IMG/VR virus record: IMGVR_UViG_2595698668_000001
Location: 96,001-160,000 of that record
Direction: 5' to 3' (one strand)
Length of the DNA stretch: 64,000 nucleotides
From: a virus
Lineage: Duplodnaviria; Caudoviricetes
The position numbers were made by a program, and so were the translations under genes. Under the pieces are notes generated by a model. The model did no database searches, was not told where the DNA came from, and saw only the letters and a program-made list of their open reading frames with translations. Position 1 is the first letter of the stretch. Every line of letters starts with the position of its first letter. Shown here one piece after another: positions 802 to 8,063 of the stretch.

Positions 802-2364
802 TTAGTTATCCCAAGGCGCGTCGTCTTCATGTGTTTGTTCAGCAAGGAGATCGTTGAAGTCAACTTCTGTTTTACTCATACGGCGTTTGAACATAGAACC
901 ACCCATCGGAGTAGTATCAATTTCATCAACAACTTCCGGAGTTACTTCTACAGGAACAGAAGTAATTTCATCACCACGACGAACAATAACCGCATCGTCT
1001 TGAATATCAGAACGTTCTTCCAGATCCTTCCTTTCGAATACAACAGTATATGGAGTTGTTTCGTCAAGGTCAGACCAACGCATTTTAGCTTTTTCTACAA
1101 CCATACAGAATTTATTATGGGTGTTGATATCGCCATAACGAGATTTAAGTTGCTTAAACAACTGTTGTCCCATCTGTACCAGATCTTCATCTTCTGAAAT
1201 TGCCAATACGAAGTCGCAACCATGAAGAAGTGCATAAGAATCTGCAATATCAGCTTTGTCGATCTCAAGGGAACCAGAAGACCCACGGTTGGTTTGTGCA
1301 CCAGACCAAGCAACAATTTTCTTCTCGATAGCAAGTCCACGTACTTCTTCTGAAATTGCCTTGATGAAAGAGTAAGAGTTATCAGAGAACTTCATACGGG
1401 ACGAAGCCATGATACCTAGGTAGTCTACCATGATAACATCTGGCTTGAAACCTTTTTTCATTTCAAGCTCATCCATCAGGTTTCTGATGTGGTTTACGTT
1501 TGCCCCTGATGTTGGGAACTGTTTGACATAAAGCTTACCAAGCTTTTTACCTGCAACCTTTTTGTTGAACCGGTTCATGAACTCAGATTTTTGGATAAGC
1601 CCACTATCTAGCTCGTCTAGAGTCAGATCCATTAGGTTTGCGTCGATACGCTTACCTACAGTCTCTTCTGACATCTCAAACGAGACGTACAACACGTTCA
1701 ACCCGAGTTGCATATACTCAGTTGCAAGGTGACACAGACCGATAGACTTACCAACGCCAGTACCGGCTAGAATAACGTTCAGTGTACCACGTTCAACCCC
1801 ACCCTTGGTGATCCGGTTCAGCATATGATTCAGGAAAGGGATCTTATTTGTCTTTTGGTTATATGCTTCCCAACGTTCTTCTGCGCTGTTCATATAATCA
1901 TGACCAACATCAAAAGTAAAGCCAACAGACATAGCCTTTTTCATGATCTCTTGCATTGCCCCGATATCTTTTATTTTCGGGTCTTGCTCATCCAGTGGTT
2001 TGGCGAAGTTTTCACGGATCTGGATACACTCAGATAATGCGATATCGATAGCACGTTCTTTACAGAAAGATTCTGTTTCTTCAATCAACCAGTTTTTATC
2101 TTCTGGGATTTGTTCAATTCGAGATACCAGAACTTTAGTCTGATCATACTCTACTTGACTCATATTCTGTTTGCGTTCCAGCATAACATCCAGAGCCGCA
2201 ACCGATGGGGCTTTGTTATGCTTTTTTGCATAGGTATCAATCAAGTCAAATGCAATACGATAAGGCCCCTTAGAGAAATATTCAGATTTAAGAAAAGGGT
2301 ACACCTTACCAAAATACTCGCCGTTGAAAACGAGGTTATTGATAATAATTTGTGAAATACTCAT
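802..2364 (-). CDS. 41: replicative DNA helicase gp41 with acidic C-terminal extension
   Basis: Walker A AGTGVGKS, VDYLGI, AQTNR, KSRYGD motifs; synteny; ATG at 2364 chosen from RBS spacing. Confidence 0.97.
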   Translation of the reverse strand: MSISQIIINNLVFNGEYFGKVYPFLKSEYFSKGPYRIAFDLIDTYAKKHNKAPSVAALDVMLERKQNMSQVEYDQTKVLVSRIEQIPEDKNWLIEETESFCKERAIDIALSECIQIRENFAKPLDEQDPKIKDIGAMQEIMKKAMSVGFTFDVGHDYMNSAEERWEAYNQKTNKIPFLNHMLNRITKGGVERGTLNVILAGTGVGKSIGLCHLATEYMQLGLNVLYVSFEMSEETVGKRIDANLMDLTLDELDSGLIQKSEFMNRFNKKVAGKKLGKLYVKQFPTSGANVNHIRNLMDELEMKKGFKPDVIMVDYLGIMASSRMKFSDNSYSFIKAISEEVRGLAIEKKIVAWSGAQTNRGSSGSLEIDKADIADSYALLHGCDFVLAISEDEDLVQMGQQLFKQLKSRYGDINTHNKFCMVVEKAKMRWSDLDETTPYTVVFERKDLEERSDIQDDAVIVRRGDEITSVPVEVTPEVVDEIDTTPMGGSMFKRRMSKTEVDFNDLLAEQTHEDDAPWDN

Positions 2365-2383
2365 TAAAAACACCTGTAAAAAG

Positions 2384-2429
2384 AAAAGTCGCTTACGTTA
2401 AAGATTATCCCATAACGTAAGCGACTTTT
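2384..2429. terminator. long perfect hairpin (17-bp stem, 12-nt loop), probable bidirectional terminator
   Basis: aaaagtcgcttacgtta-N12-taacgtaagcgactttt. Confidence 0.7.
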
Positions 2430-2436
2430 TAATTAT

Positions 2437-2952
2437 TTATACAACCTTTTTCTGTGAGGAAAAATGAAGAATACCGGTATCATTCAGCACGAACGGTACA
2501 TCGTCCTCGGTGATGATATGCATCCAGAACCTAGCCTTATATTTGTATTGACGAACCCGTTTTACCCGATTCACAACACCACCATCAGGAGTACAATATT
2601 GAGCTGCATATAGAGCCTGATAGGGGCTCTTGCGGTCATATAGACTCAGAACTTGATGGTTCTCTGCACACAACCAAGATTTCCCGTTAGACATATGGAT
2701 TTCCCATACGTTCGGGTTGACCGGTTCTGTGAACTCCGTATCGACCATACGTAAGATCGTTGCGTATTTACCGGTTTCTGGTCCCTTTAGAAGGATCCGG
2801 TTGCCCTGTTGAATCTCTAGAAGTTGATATAGAGTCCATGTTTGTTCCCTCATGTCCCCATAAATGTCGGGAGCGCAAAAGGTAACAAGGGTATCCTCTG
2901 GAAATCCAGTTACATCATAACAATCATTACGGTCGCAGGTTTGTTCTGTCAT
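2437..2952 (-). CDS. stand-alone degenerate Hint (intein-like) domain protein, 171 aa
   Basis: GFPEDTLV (block A-like), VWEIHMSNGKSWLCAENHQVL (block B-like), MHIITEDDVPFVLNDTGILHFS (block F/G-like); AAGGA RBS before ATG 2952. Confidence 0.65.
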   Translation of the reverse strand: MTEQTCDRNDCYDVTGFPEDTLVTFCAPDIYGDMREQTWTLYQLLEIQQGNRILLKGPETGKYATILRMVDTEFTEPVNPNVWEIHMSNGKSWLCAENHQVLSLYDRKSPYQALYAAQYCTPDGGVVNRVKRVRQYKYKARFWMHIITEDDVPFVLNDTGILHFSSQKKVV

Positions 2953-2953
2953 T

Positions 2954-3244
2954 TTATTTCCTTTTGAAAAGATCAAGAAAACGCCCAAAGAAAGATTTTT
3001 CAATCTCAACATTGGTTTGGTTATACATGGCTTGTACTGCATTTTTAACATGTGGATATAGTTCTTCCTTCATGTCTTCATGTGGGGTACTCCAATCTAA
3101 TACAACCTTTCCATCATGATACTGTATATCGTTGATAAACACAAGAAAATTCTCACTATCAATCCGGATAACCAATTCGGTTTGTACATTCTTTAATGCG
3201 TCATTGATTACATCTTTATAGGTATCTTCGTTTATTTCTTCCAT
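2954..3244 (-). CDS. 40: head vertex (portal) assembly chaperone gp40
   Basis: ELVIR...VFINDIQYHDGKVVLDWSTP...ELYPHV matches gp40 pattern; position between uvsX and gp41. Confidence 0.85.
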   Translation of the reverse strand: MEEINEDTYKDVINDALKNVQTELVIRIDSENFLVFINDIQYHDGKVVLDWSTPHEDMKEELYPHVKNAVQAMYNQTNVEIEKSFFGRFLDLFKRK

Positions 3245-3285
3245 ATATTACCTGTAAGAAATAGACCTAGTTTCCTAGGTCATTG

Positions 3286-3717
3286 TTATTTAGGGATGAT
3301 ACTAACCTTGGCATTACAAGAGGCTGCAACAGGATAAACTATTTCATCAAAATACTTTTTATTTTTGAAACCATCTAATACCAAAAGATGACTATAGGAG
3401 AACCCTTTTAGTCCTAATGGGTCTCTTACTAAGACGAAATACGATTCGTTTTCAAGTTTTATGTATTTTGAATTTGAGGCCAAAACGAATTCATCACCAA
3501 AAATATTACCCAATTCTTTTAATTGATATTTTATCTCATTGAATATAGTTCCATTCATTGGTTCCATAACAATGGTTTTTCTCCCTTGGGAATTAAAATA
3601 ACAATCATGAACAGCAGCCGAAACTGGGGTATCCTGAACTCCGATGTGAGTCAAATAAAAACCATAGTCGTTACGAAGATTAATAAACAATTCTACTATT
3701 TCTTTTGTTAAATTCAT
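3286..3717 (-). CDS. degenerate terminase large-subunit ATPase-domain-like protein, 143 aa
   Basis: Collinear similarity by eye to this window's gp17 ([78 protein letters not shown]); AGGA RBS before ATG 3717. Confidence 0.6.
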   Translation of the reverse strand: MNLTKEIVELFINLRNDYGFYLTHIGVQDTPVSAAVHDCYFNSQGRKTIVMEPMNGTIFNEIKYQLKELGNIFGDEFVLASNSKYIKLENESYFVLVRDPLGLKGFSYSHLLVLDGFKNKKYFDEIVYPVAASCNAKVSIIPK

Positions 3718-3752
3718 AATAATCCTATAATGGGGCTTTCGCCCCAATAATA

Positions 3753-4894: not shown

Positions 4895-5299
4895 TTATTT
4901 GAATTCGCGTTCTAGTTCTTTTCTAATTCTTTTATAAAGACTAAGTTTATCTTCCTTATCAGTTACAGCCATGTCTTCGGGGGTAATATTGTTTCTGGCA
5001 AGCCCAGTCGATTTAACTATCAAAGATTCCCTGAAATGTTCAAAGGAAACGTCTGTATTTTTCCCCCATTTCCGACGAAGGAAGAATACCAGTTTGATAG
5101 CATCAGAATATTCGTTAAGATAAACACATTCAAGTCTCAGGTCGTTATCCATTCCAACTTCTTCTAAAAGTGAAGAAATTATTTCGCCAATATTATTGGG
5201 ATATGGATCCAGATTATCTAGGTCATCTCTTTCGAGCATACGGCTGTGAAGTTTACTTACAACCTCATTTAAATGAGGGTGGGCGTCTTGAATTCTCAT
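4895..5299 (-). CDS. hypothetical protein
   Basis: 134-aa ORF with AAGGA RBS and upstream TGTGATATAAT extended -10. Confidence 0.7.
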   Translation of the reverse strand: MRIQDAHPHLNEVVSKLHSRMLERDDLDNLDPYPNNIGEIISSLLEEVGMDNDLRLECVYLNEYSDAIKLVFFLRRKWGKNTDVSFEHFRESLIVKSTGLARNNITPEDMAVTDKEDKLSLYKRIRKELEREFK

Positions 5300-5367: not shown

Positions 5368-6543
5368 TCAACCAAACAAGTCATCCAGAGAAAAATTCGC
5401 GGGACTTTCTTGTTTCCACCCAATAGCATCACAGATATTACCAAGTGGCTTTTGGAAGTGTTTACAATACATACCAACGAAATCAATATCTTTTTCCGGA
5501 TTAATTCCGAATTCGTCTGGGATCTTATCACCGGAAGGCCAAGCAATAGTTTCGATATGATATTTATTCGGAACCTTCAACATTGCATACTGAATTTTTT
5601 CACCGGAACGGATTGGGTCAACGTAGGATACCGATTTCAACTGATCACAAATCTTGTTGTAGTTAATAGCTGCTTTAACGTGACCGGGACAACCAGATTT
5701 ATGATTGAAAAATTCGTCTGAGTTCTTTTCAATATTATTTGCGCTACTTACTTGTGCAATCTTACGATAATCCTGTTTTGGATATTCACCCTTTACCTTG
5801 TCAACGTGAGCATGGAGATTTGTTTCATTCTCAGTCAAAATGATGTCAATCGCTTTTTCAAGACATTCTGACGCAAAAGGTGGTGTACTGCTGCGGCGTG
5901 TTTCGATACCCATAATCTTGAGCTTTGGAACTACGTTACCATGAGAGTCTAGCTTTCTCTTACCTTCGTTATCCCACACAGAAAGAGCATATCGTTTCTT
6001 AGCGGTCCAGAACCCACGAGTTGCGATTACTTCACGGTCCATGAACAATTTATGATCGAAATAGTTCATGTAATCTTTCAGTTCGCGATAACATTCATCG
6101 ATATATGGCTCAATCATATTCTTTGCAAACTTATCAAGCATATCAACCCATTTAATAGGTTCGACATCCTCAATCTTAACACCTTTCTTGTCTGCCATCA
6201 TTTTAACGAAGTTTTCAACACAAACATATTGGGAGTCAGTATCACAATAGATAACGTAGTCTACGTCTTCTGTATTACACAGCTTATTGAAATATTCATT
6301 CGTTTTTCTGGCAATCCATTTAATGGATAGCTGACCACCCATCGTAATTGATTCTGCCATTCTTAGATCATAATAGCGACCCACTGGATGACCCAAAGAC
6401 CCATAAAGAGAGTTGATCAATACCTTTTTTGCTTGTTGGGTTACGTTACATACTTTCTCATATTTCCGACAGTCAGAGATGAGCTTTTTCAGCTCATCGT
6501 CTGTCATATTTTCCAATTGTTCATCGGTATAATCTAGATTCAT
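5368..6543 (-). CDS. 43B: DNA polymerase C-terminal subunit gp43B
   Basis: KKVLINSLYG (motif B), YCDTDS (motif C), KKRYAL, C-terminal clamp-binding SLDDLFG. Confidence 0.96.
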   Translation of the reverse strand: MNLDYTDEQLENMTDDELKKLISDCRKYEKVCNVTQQAKKVLINSLYGSLGHPVGRYYDLRMAESITMGGQLSIKWIARKTNEYFNKLCNTEDVDYVIYCDTDSQYVCVENFVKMMADKKGVKIEDVEPIKWVDMLDKFAKNMIEPYIDECYRELKDYMNYFDHKLFMDREVIATRGFWTAKKRYALSVWDNEGKRKLDSHGNVVPKLKIMGIETRRSSTPPFASECLEKAIDIILTENETNLHAHVDKVKGEYPKQDYRKIAQVSSANNIEKNSDEFFNHKSGCPGHVKAAINYNKICDQLKSVSYVDPIRSGEKIQYAMLKVPNKYHIETIAWPSGDKIPDEFGINPEKDIDFVGMYCKHFQKPLGNICDAIGWKQESPANFSLDDLFG

Positions 6544-8063
6544 TTATCATTCCTCTTTGCCAAGATTGCAGCAGCTCTAGTTGCAAGGGCATCAGCTTTA
6601 AACTCTTCGGTCTTGGCTTGTTTCCGTTGGACAAACACCTTCTCAACTTCAATAGGAAGGAAACCGCGTTTGTCATTTCGATAACGAACACCATTTGGGG
6701 CGACGGAATATTTACCTTCATGAGGAACATCAAACGTCTTGTTAACCAAACCCATACCTTCAATATCCGGAACCATGCGGTCTTTAACCAAGATACGAGG
6801 GAAGTCAATCTGATCAACCAAAGTCTCGGGAGAAATATTCTTACCCATGATTTCGTGTGGATAAAGCGAAGTCAAGTCAAACGACAGAAGCCATTCATAC
6901 AATCCCGGAATCGGATCCTTAACATACGCACCCGCAAACTTAGACCGTTGAGCGTGTTTGTTTTCTGGAATAATCACGTTGTTGGCAAGGAGACTGTTAT
7001 AAATGATAGCATCCCAAGTTTTCAACGGACTGAATACGTCTGGTGCGTTGATACTCGCATAATAGGACACAGACGCAATCAGGAATATCAAACTCAAGGT
7101 TTCTTCCAGTCGTTTGATAATTTCAACGTCTCGAATAGAGTAATCGATATAAGTTTGTGGATCCTTTTCAGCAAACATCAAGTAAGTTTTATAAGTCATT
7201 TCGACTTTATTTGTTTTCAGTTCTGCTTCCGCAATCGTATCTAGTTTATAGTTTGGTCGAGTGGTAAAAGTAAACTTCTTATATGCTGCCATGAAGTCAA
7301 CACAGTTTACACCTTGGATAGTGTAGGTGGTGTAATCTTCATCGTTGTCATCCTTTTGGGTGATCTCTGTAGTCTCACCAAATGGACTCAGCTTATGGAT
7401 AAATTTTTCACCAAGGACTTTTTTAATACGACCCATGATATAGGGAATATCAAAAAACTCACTATTCCACCCACTAAGATAATGTGGTGTATTCGTACAG
7501 AAAAAGTGCATGAACTTAATCAGGATTTCTTTTTCAGAACCACACAAAACATATTCCACATCATCGAGAACTTTTTTATCTAGAATAGATTTACATGCAT
7601 CCCATTCACGGATAGTCCAGATATAATATTTTTTTGATTTGGTACTATAGATCTGAATGGTATCTATTTCATACTTAGTTTCTTCTGCTTGTGGGAAAGG
7701 TCCATCAGTTGGGACTTCGATATCCAAAAACATAATATCAAGATATGTATAGTCATAATACACATTAGAACCGTAAGTATCAGAGATATATTGGAATGTG
7801 TAATTATCCATACCCAATACGTCTTTTCCCATAGACTGCATGTCTTTAAACCATTTCCTAGCTTCACCAACAGAATCTAGTTTCTTGGGCAAACAACGCT
7901 TACCGAAAATATCCCGATACGGAGTCTCAATATGATCACCAACATGACGATACATAGTTGGTTCATATCTAACCTTTCGGATCTTATCATTACCGTTATC
8001 ATCGAAATACCGGTCATAAATGGTATTTCCATCTAGCCAAACACTTGTATAAAAATTCATCAC
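6540..8063 (-). CDS. 43A: DNA polymerase N-terminal subunit gp43A (exonuclease + motif A)
   Basis: DIEV (ExoI), GWNSEFFDIPY (ExoII), YSIRDV (ExoIII), SFDLTSLYP (motif A); stop overlaps 43B start as ATGA. Confidence 0.96.
   Translation of the reverse strand: MMNFYTSVWLDGNTIYDRYFDDNGNDKIRKVRYEPTMYRHVGDHIETPYRDIFGKRCLPKKLDSVGEARKWFKDMQSMGKDVLGMDNYTFQYISDTYGSNVYYDYTYLDIMFLDIEVPTDGPFPQAEETKYEIDTIQIYSTKSKKYYIWTIREWDACKSILDKKVLDDVEYVLCGSEKEILIKFMHFFCTNTPHYLSGWNSEFFDIPYIMGRIKKVLGEKFIHKLSPFGETTEITQKDDNDEDYTTYTIQGVNCVDFMAAYKKFTFTTRPNYKLDTIAEAELKTNKVEMTYKTYLMFAEKDPQTYIDYSIRDVEIIKRLEETLSLIFLIASVSYYASINAPDVFSPLKTWDAIIYNSLLANNVIIPENKHAQRSKFAGAYVKDPIPGLYEWLLSFDLTSLYPHEIMGKNISPETLVDQIDFPRILVKDRMVPDIEGMGLVNKTFDVPHEGKYSVAPNGVRYRNDKRGFLPIEVEKVFVQRKQAKTEEFKADALATRAAAILAKRNDK

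Follow-up and report, generated by a model that had tools for sequence, protein, structure and literature searches.

A predicted Hint-fold protein, apparently dead for splicing and free-standing, between genes 40 and 41 of T4-like Aeromonas phages

The DNA analysed here is a stretch of 64,000 nucleotides, referred to as the window (positions 96,001 to 160,000 of IMG/VR record IMGVR_UViG_2595698668_000001), from a T4-like Aeromonas phage of the genus Ceceduovirus (CC2-like), its first 6 kb being 95-97% identical at DNA level to AS-sw, AS-yj, P19 and others. On the minus strand between genes 40 and 41 it contains an open reading frame (ORF) of 171 residues, and we are highly confident that this Hint ORF encodes a selected, splicing-dead, free-standing Hint protein. 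The best explanation overall, which we consider probable, is that a Hint horseshoe of the mini-intein type has turned into an ordinary, non-catalytic stand-alone phage protein, and we tentatively put forward the possibility that it acts as a non-enzymatic binding module. The common view of inteins is one of selfish elements that keep splicing or decay; to our knowledge very few clear examples exist in which an intein has become an ordinary gene, yeast HO being the one given in textbooks. In the present case the chemistry would be gone, but the fold would have been retained over a long period in a phage subfamily, encoded at a constant position flanked by an assembly gene and the gene of the replicative helicase. 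The assignment is new for public annotation, in which the protein is uncharacterised, without a Pfam family and placed in a PHROG without an assigned function, and a literature search on stand-alone, orphan or domesticated inteins and Hint proteins in phages (subscription journals lying outside its coverage) found nothing describing the family. Experiments in a cultivable phage-host pair now have something definite to start from, and should the protein bind a defined partner, protein engineers would gain a Hint scaffold that is small and stable and does not splice.

A preliminary description of this DNA, made from the sequence, had reported a mini-intein-like ORF with its motifs in the order expected, and the ORF is real with all of the quoted motifs present in it: GFPEDTLV, GPETGK (residues 57-62), VWEIHMSNGKSWLCAENHQVL (residues 82-102), VNRVKRV (residues 127-133) and MHIITEDDVPFVLNDTGILHFSS (residues 144-166). 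The ORF and its intein-like parts, as aligned to inteins, are as follows.

2437..2952 including the stop, minus strand: stand-alone Hint-fold ORF (putative dead mini-intein), 171 residues, family phrog_16672, from the ORF and its translation
2884..2907, minus strand: equivalent of block A, residues 16-23 (GFPEDTLV), with Gly16 at intein position 1, by hhalign and VIA-align, Gly in 8/8 family members
2644..2709, minus strand: equivalent of block B, residues 82-103, with His99 kept and Ala96 at the Thr position, by hhalign, His in 8/8 members
2538..2643, minus strand: basic segment between blocks B and F, approximately residues 104-141, net charge +7 by charge computation in a protein with an overall isoelectric point (pI) of 5.5
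2458..2529, minus strand: equivalent of blocks F and G, residues 142-165, with His163 kept, Phe164 in place of the terminal Asn and Ser165 as +1, by hhalign and MAFFT

Sequence profiles, predicted structure and the ESM Atlas are three independent lines that agree on a Hint/intein fold, and we regard the prediction of a beta-horseshoe Hint fold for residues 16 to 164 as solid. No curated model of the Hint clan matches above threshold, so that the case for homology rests on profile-profile comparison and on the fold. Family member P0001 matches no Pfam family at E<=1 and members P0005 to P0007 match none at E<=0.01, which leaves PF14890, PF07591, PF01079 and the other Hint-clan models unmatched above threshold, and in the genome of phage 65 the sole PF14890 signal lies inside the Hint homologue with an E-value of 0.026 and 11.6 bits against a cut-off of 35.8. 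A family alignment of eight members was compared by global hhalign with four mini-inteins cut from the multi-intein proteins P0011 and P0012, and residues 16-165 of the query aligned with intein residues 1-140 (P 5e-6, probability 70%, 133 columns). Against P0012 block B was 48% identical over 23 residues (E 7.7e-6, probability 84%), and in a MAFFT alignment blocks A, B, F and G fall in register with inteins, with an insert of about 10 residues after block A. The best matches of the family profile in the PDB were the gp41-1 and DnaE inteins at block B, at E-values of 0.09-0.34 that are not significant alone.

AlphaFold2, run with the eight-sequence alignment, returned a model that is almost all beta with a mean predicted local distance difference test (pLDDT) score of 88.7 and a predicted template-modelling (pTM) score of 0.83. 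Searched with Foldseek against the PDB this model gave 30 matches at E<=1e-3, the best at 1.8e-5, and throughout the matches listed these were an intein or a bacterial intein-like (BIL) domain. In many of the structure alignments residues 16..165 of the model correspond to chain residues 1..end (VIA-align likewise pairs residue 16 with chain residue 1 in many inteins), a register that independently confirms Gly16 as intein position 1 and Ser165 as +1. The ESM Atlas has its own model of the protein, with template-modelling (TM) scores of 0.67-0.74 to the intein parts of dCTP deaminase, a T4-like portal, GyrB and others. The likeness to Hint domains and inteins that had been claimed from the motifs is therefore borne out by the hhalign and Foldseek scores, and the structure check that the preliminary description had named beforehand as able to overturn the idea returned a predicted Hint fold.

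Intein block numbering and residue roles follow general usage, which is covered in part in PMC8616854. The catalytic positions were read across the eight family members after aligning these to intein positions with hhalign and MAFFT.

A:1, usually Cys or Ser: Gly in 8/8, lost
B:7, usually Thr: A, A, C, C, C, C, P, S, lost
B:10, usually His: His in 8/8, kept
F:4, usually Asp: H, H, N, N, N, N, N, N and never the class-3 Cys, lost
F:13, usually His: never His, lost
G:6, usually His: His in 8/8 (His163), kept
G:7 (residue 164), usually the terminal Asn: F, F, V, Y, V, G, G, A, lost
+1, usually Cys, Ser or Thr: Ser in six members, Pro and Ala in the others, mostly Ser

All eight members have thus lost five of the seven catalytic positions and retained both signature His residues, and the replacements first described for this ORF (Gly at position 1, Ala for the block-B Thr with its His kept, Phe for the terminal Asn) are confirmed. 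Eight columns of the alignment are invariant (M1, G16, G32, E73, H99, G124, T148 and H163), and placed by alignment to inteins G16, H99 and H163 would be residues that meet at the intein active site. The ORF has its own start and stop and adds only a leader of 15 residues and a tail of seven, so that, as had been noted, neither an extein nor an endonuclease is attached. Its four blocks lie in a single ORF, unlike split inteins and fractured genes in which the halves are carried on two host-gene fragments. Judged from these residues the protein cannot follow the known intein routes of splicing or self-cleavage, because it has no position-1 nucleophile, no class-3 Cys and no cyclising Asn.

Among known systems the class-1 mini-inteins (NrdJ-1, gp41-1, Npu and Ssp DnaE, Ssp DnaB; PDB 8ubs, 6qaz, 4kl5, 1mi8) are nearest by fold and block order. 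The order of blocks A, B, F and G is common to them and the Hint protein, as are the block-B His and the penultimate His, and the Hint protein is of mini-intein size with 149 residues from Gly16 to Phe164. These inteins are inserted in host proteins and carry splicing residues, whereas the Hint protein stands alone, is only 8-19% identical to solved inteins and has the insert after block A; on its sequence it appears to lack every functional hallmark of an intein that can be tested. The solved inteins all score within about 1 Z unit of one another, and for this reason none of them can be singled out as the donor. Yeast HO is a domesticated intein, a free-standing intein-derived gene that does not splice and is kept for a host function. 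It retains a LAGLIDADG endonuclease domain plus a zinc-finger domain, and differs in this from the Hint protein, which would be a bare Hint domain. BIL domains and Hedgehog (Hog) autoprocessing domains (PDB 2lwy, 6tmm/6y75, 1at0, 6tyy) keep the position-1 Cys and cleave or transfer within larger proteins, and the Hint protein differs from them by its Gly at position 1 and by standing alone. Residues C1 and H69 of BIL2 are described in passages of PMC8616854. Four proteins of 144-172 residues are among the top 50 matches in BFVD (TM by target 0.55-0.66, one of them named 'Hint module') and the ESM Atlas holds virus clusters of 128-171 residues with Hint families, which are likewise stand-alone Hint-sized proteins; these viral proteins have no detectable sequence relationship to the Hint family and resemble it by fold.

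The family itself is narrow. The product of the Hint ORF has a 100% identical counterpart in BFVD, entered there for Aeromonas phage CC2 as an 'uncharacterized protein', and is matched over residues 1-171 of 171 by phrog_16672 (annotated function unknown; E 2.1e-104), which also matches members P0006 (E 3.7e-24) and P0007 (E 1.3e-9). With tblastn it was found in 18 of 50,697 phage records, all of them Aeromonas phages of the subfamily Emmerichvirinae, 11 at 100% identity, two at 61.8% (Aswh_1 and ZPAH1) and four at 32.2% (phage 65 under two accessions, 65.2 and avDM6). Searches by tblastn with P0001, P0006 and P0007 found nothing outside this subfamily, and a scan of 185,579 bacterial and archaeal genomes yielded no relative. 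Four matches came from a word-based search of 5.8 billion proteins, or six when a profile was used, and HMMER, run exhaustively with a profile against 1.84 billion representatives of all lengths, gave nine at E<=1e-3. Four of these nine are family members of 163-174 residues (P0001, P0005, P0006, P0007), two are the unrelated multi-intein proteins P0011 and P0012, weakly matched at intein block B, and the remaining three, long beta proteins rich in repeats, were matched piecemeal in 5-11 short stretches and were taken as spurious. Scans for relatives returned only two known phages from IMG/VR and one phage-65-like contig from metagenomes. Within the eight-member alignment relatives at 21-29% identity share length and blocks.

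The reading frame is unbroken in 17 of the 18 records. In the eighteenth, that of AsSzw2 (L003:1501-2133), an apparent 40-codon insertion is a run of N, ambiguous bases in an unverified assembly, and is no real variant. The place of the gene between genes 40 and 41 is common to all six annotated relatives that were opened (phage 65, Aswh_1, avDM6, P19, Assk and AS-sw), and in the phage-65-like metagenomic contig gene 41 comes right after the Hint homologue. Codon comparisons with five Ceceduovirus loci, which share ancestry and hence are not independent, gave 8-11 synonymous and 0 non-synonymous differences in the Hint ORF, 48-71 and 3-26 in gene 41 and 39-44 and 1 in uvsX. Between genera, where synonymous sites are saturated, the Hint protein is 63% (Aswh_1) or 34% (phage 65) identical, in comparison with 83-86% for gp41, 86-90% for uvsX and 54-57% for gp40. 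These sequence comparisons show purifying selection on the gene and a slot kept in two genera of Emmerichvirinae, and by the same measure the Hint ORF is a selected yet fast-evolving accessory gene. The suggestion that it had been kept rather than lost stands up to the conservation check in relatives, in which selection and synteny were found and no strain-specific decay.

In its own genome the Hint ORF is single-copy and lies in the following setting.

2954..3244, minus strand: gene 40, head vertex assembly chaperone, adjoining upstream (PF11113, E 1e-17; phrog_999)
802..2373, minus strand: gene 41, replicative helicase, downstream and without an intein (PF03796; phrog_19; no PF14890 match in the genome)
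2378..2429, minus strand: terminator-like hairpin of 17 bp followed by a U-run, between the Hint ORF and gene 41, by folding and shuffles
3264..3281, minus strand: short hairpin upstream of gene 40, a hit in a scan for terminator-like structures

One nucleotide separates the stop codon of gene 40 from the ATG of the Hint ORF and an AGGA lies upstream of this start, in accordance with the ribosome-binding site and the position after gene 40 that had been described. The corresponding spacing is 3 bases in phage 65 and avDM6 and 1 base in Aswh_1. The hairpin at 2378..2429 has a folding energy of -25.4 kcal/mol (z -5.9), a value that 0 of 200 shuffled sequences matched; phage 65, Aswh_1 and avDM6 have a GC-rich hairpin and U-run of different sequence at the matching position. 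Together with the hairpin at 3264..3281 it brackets gene 40 and the Hint ORF, and on sequence grounds the two look like a two-gene unit. A late motif had also been reported upstream, and CCCTAAATA is indeed present at 3287-3295 on the minus strand; its reading as a late motif holds less well, since it runs into the stop codon of the ORF upstream and differs from what we take to be the canonical T4 late motif. A perfect TATAAATA lies at 2434..2441 on the minus strand, over the stop of the Hint ORF and just before the terminator-like hairpin and gene 41. With 9 occurrences in the window where 5.5 are expected, this sequence is not enriched, and its presence at the Hint stop may be due to chance.

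In the full genome of 231,743 bases PF14890 has 0 matches at E<=1 and no Hint signal was found outside the Hint ORF, which upholds the earlier statement that gp41, gp17, gp43 and nrd carry no intein. The same model found no true intein in five family-bearing relatives, nor in three other T4-like phages. The preliminary description had further proposed that an intein left its host gene, and for this step no support was obtained: neither a fused form nor a donor intein was found, there being no longer fused relative among the 1.84 billion representatives and, with HMMER, only weak matches at block B.

With regard to the slot itself, gene 40 lies directly before gene 41 in a Vibrio phage and a 2OG-Fe(II) oxygenase takes that place in a cyanophage. 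The 40-41 junction is variable and appears to be visited by mobile DNA, and from the sequences compared it looks like a landing site. Local hidden Markov models found no free-standing Hint gene among 1014 ORFs at 80 IMG/VR T4-like gp41 loci, the profiles being weak and absence thus unproven, and Pfam, which misses the Hint family itself, gave no other Hint signal in 80 upstream ORFs from 64 loci. Within the reach of these weak screens the Hint gene appears, as far as seen, to be specific to Emmerichvirinae. In avDM2 (Biquartavirus; L014:1758-2501) an ORF like a NUMOD3 homing endonuclease lies between genes 40 and 41, and in another Aeromonas T4-like phage (L017:1243-1995) an ORF like a NUMOD3/HNH homing endonuclease lies upstream of gene 40. 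One of the 80 loci, an uncultured T4-like contig (L069:940-2707), has uvsX in two ORFs, of which the first ends with the N half and the second begins with the C half of a true split intein. The short gap between these ORFs holds an antisense ORF of 75 residues in a 'fractured gene' layout.

The DNA polymerase gene gp43 is also split in the window (5368..8063, minus strand), into 43A (6540..8063, 507 residues) and 43B (5368..6543, 391 residues) with a stop/start overlap of 4 bases and no intein signal, and that of phage 65 is likewise annotated 'split polB'. The last 19 residues of 43A gave no tblastn alignment in any phage including the closest relatives, for which low-complexity masking is one possible cause. 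A link between the Hint gene and the split gp43 was considered and rejected, there being no Hint signal elsewhere in the genome; a Biquartavirus that has a polymerase ORF of 43B size (1176 nt) and lacks the Hint family also speaks against it. A further point counted against it is that 43A and 43B sum to 898 residues, which we take to be the length of the unsplit T4 gp43.

The Hint protein would be made together with gp40, its start being translationally coupled to gene 40 and the pair bracketed by hairpins. If it acts as a binding module, its likeliest binding surface would be the former extein-junction cleft, to which Gly16, His99 and His163, three of the eight invariant residues, map by alignment. 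Candidate partners would be gp40 and the head-initiation machinery, or proteins of the replisome. A number of points weigh against this proposal. The link to gp40 is weak because translational coupling is common in compact T4-like genomes, and the clustering of invariant residues is read from alignment to inteins rather than from distances. The kept His pair could mean residual chemistry or metal binding instead of plain binding, and divergence far faster than that of gp41 and uvsX fits a loosely constrained or conflict-driven accessory gene equally well.

Other explanations of the Hint ORF have to be weighed against that of a non-catalytic stand-alone protein. An intein remnant in decay and without function, or an ORF present by chance, would agree with the lack of a Pfam match and of an assigned function and with a family of four among 1.84 billion representatives; this reading is contradicted by 0 non-synonymous against 8-11 synonymous differences in five comparisons, by a frame and synteny intact across two genera saturated at synonymous sites and by a confidently predicted fold together with relatives at 21-29% identity that keep length and blocks, and we find it scarcely credible. 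The protein might also have kept or gained chemistry at its active site, where the His pair, possibly helped by Glu73 or Thr148, would hold a metal or act in trans on a bond of another protein, and all four of these residues are invariant in 8/8 members, the two His residues in spite of the lost nucleophiles. We know of no Hint enzyme that works without a position-1 nucleophile or a C-terminal Asn/Gln, both His residues are probably structural in the fold as well and no hydrolase family was matched in Pfam, NCBIfam or PADLOC, the last two of which gave nothing meaningful. Even with zinc binding at the active-site His of inteins documented in passages of PMC8616854, which counts in its favour, we judge such chemistry quite improbable. 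A nucleic-acid-binding accessory protein with the basic insert between blocks B and F as its DNA or RNA recognition region seems to us unlikely, if less so. The segment at residues 104-141 carries +7 in a protein of pI 5.5, R129, R132, K137 and K139 are invariant among the six closest members and the gene lies within a replication and recombination cluster (43, uvsX, 41, 61). Hint domains of intein endonucleases moreover help DNA binding, as in PI-SceI and HO. Against this the protein is acidic overall, the basic residues are not invariant once two distant members are included and no family of this kind was matched in Pfam or NCBIfam. According to the passages of PMC11923092 that touch on them, the site of the segment is where inteins hold their endonuclease insertion or split site, and split inteins in general have N and C parts of opposite local charge, so that the basic stretch may be merely inherited.

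The preliminary description had also suggested a decoy or inhibitor of Hint-dependent processing, that is, a dead Hint protein that disturbs splicing of inteins of the host or of rival phages during co-infection. Fast divergence between genera, as often seen in conflict genes, would suit this, as would a 40-41 slot that holds mobile endonuclease genes in other Aeromonas phages. As originally stated the idea does not hold up, because none of the six family-bearing genomes searched, its own and those of five relatives, holds a true intein and it thus lacks a home target. The fold is moreover complete and closed, and trapping an intein fragment would presumably need a free half. We rate the idea as very improbable. 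A possible outside target is the natural split intein that PMC11923092, in the parts that concern it, places in PolB genes of other T4-like phages infecting A. salmonicida. The Hint protein could then be a phage-versus-phage weapon that disturbs assembly or trans-splicing of the split PolB intein of rivals (of the Aes123 PolB1 type) in A. salmonicida co-infection, exchange of strands or swapping of domains with the intein halves of the rival being one conceivable route, and this would favour its carrier, whose own split polymerase needs no splicing. The Hint protein is 11-14% identical to the Aes123 intein, no closer than to other inteins, and we hold this version to be more improbable still. 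We retain, as the probable explanation, a Hint horseshoe turned into an ordinary phage protein.

A few minor observations were made around the locus. The gp41 of the window (802..2373) has a C-terminal extension of about 80 residues relative to other T4-like gp41, tblastn covering approximately 83% of it outside Emmerichvirinae; extension and Hint gene co-occur in one lineage only, which carries no statistical weight. The replication cluster also contains two conserved minus-strand ORFs, one at 4895..5299 (134 residues) without a Pfam match and one at 3286..3747 (153 residues, phrog_20104) with only a sub-threshold Pfam signal to DUF6945 (E 0.057). In P19 and AS-sw the stretch from uvsX to gene 40 is annotated as two shorter ORFs.

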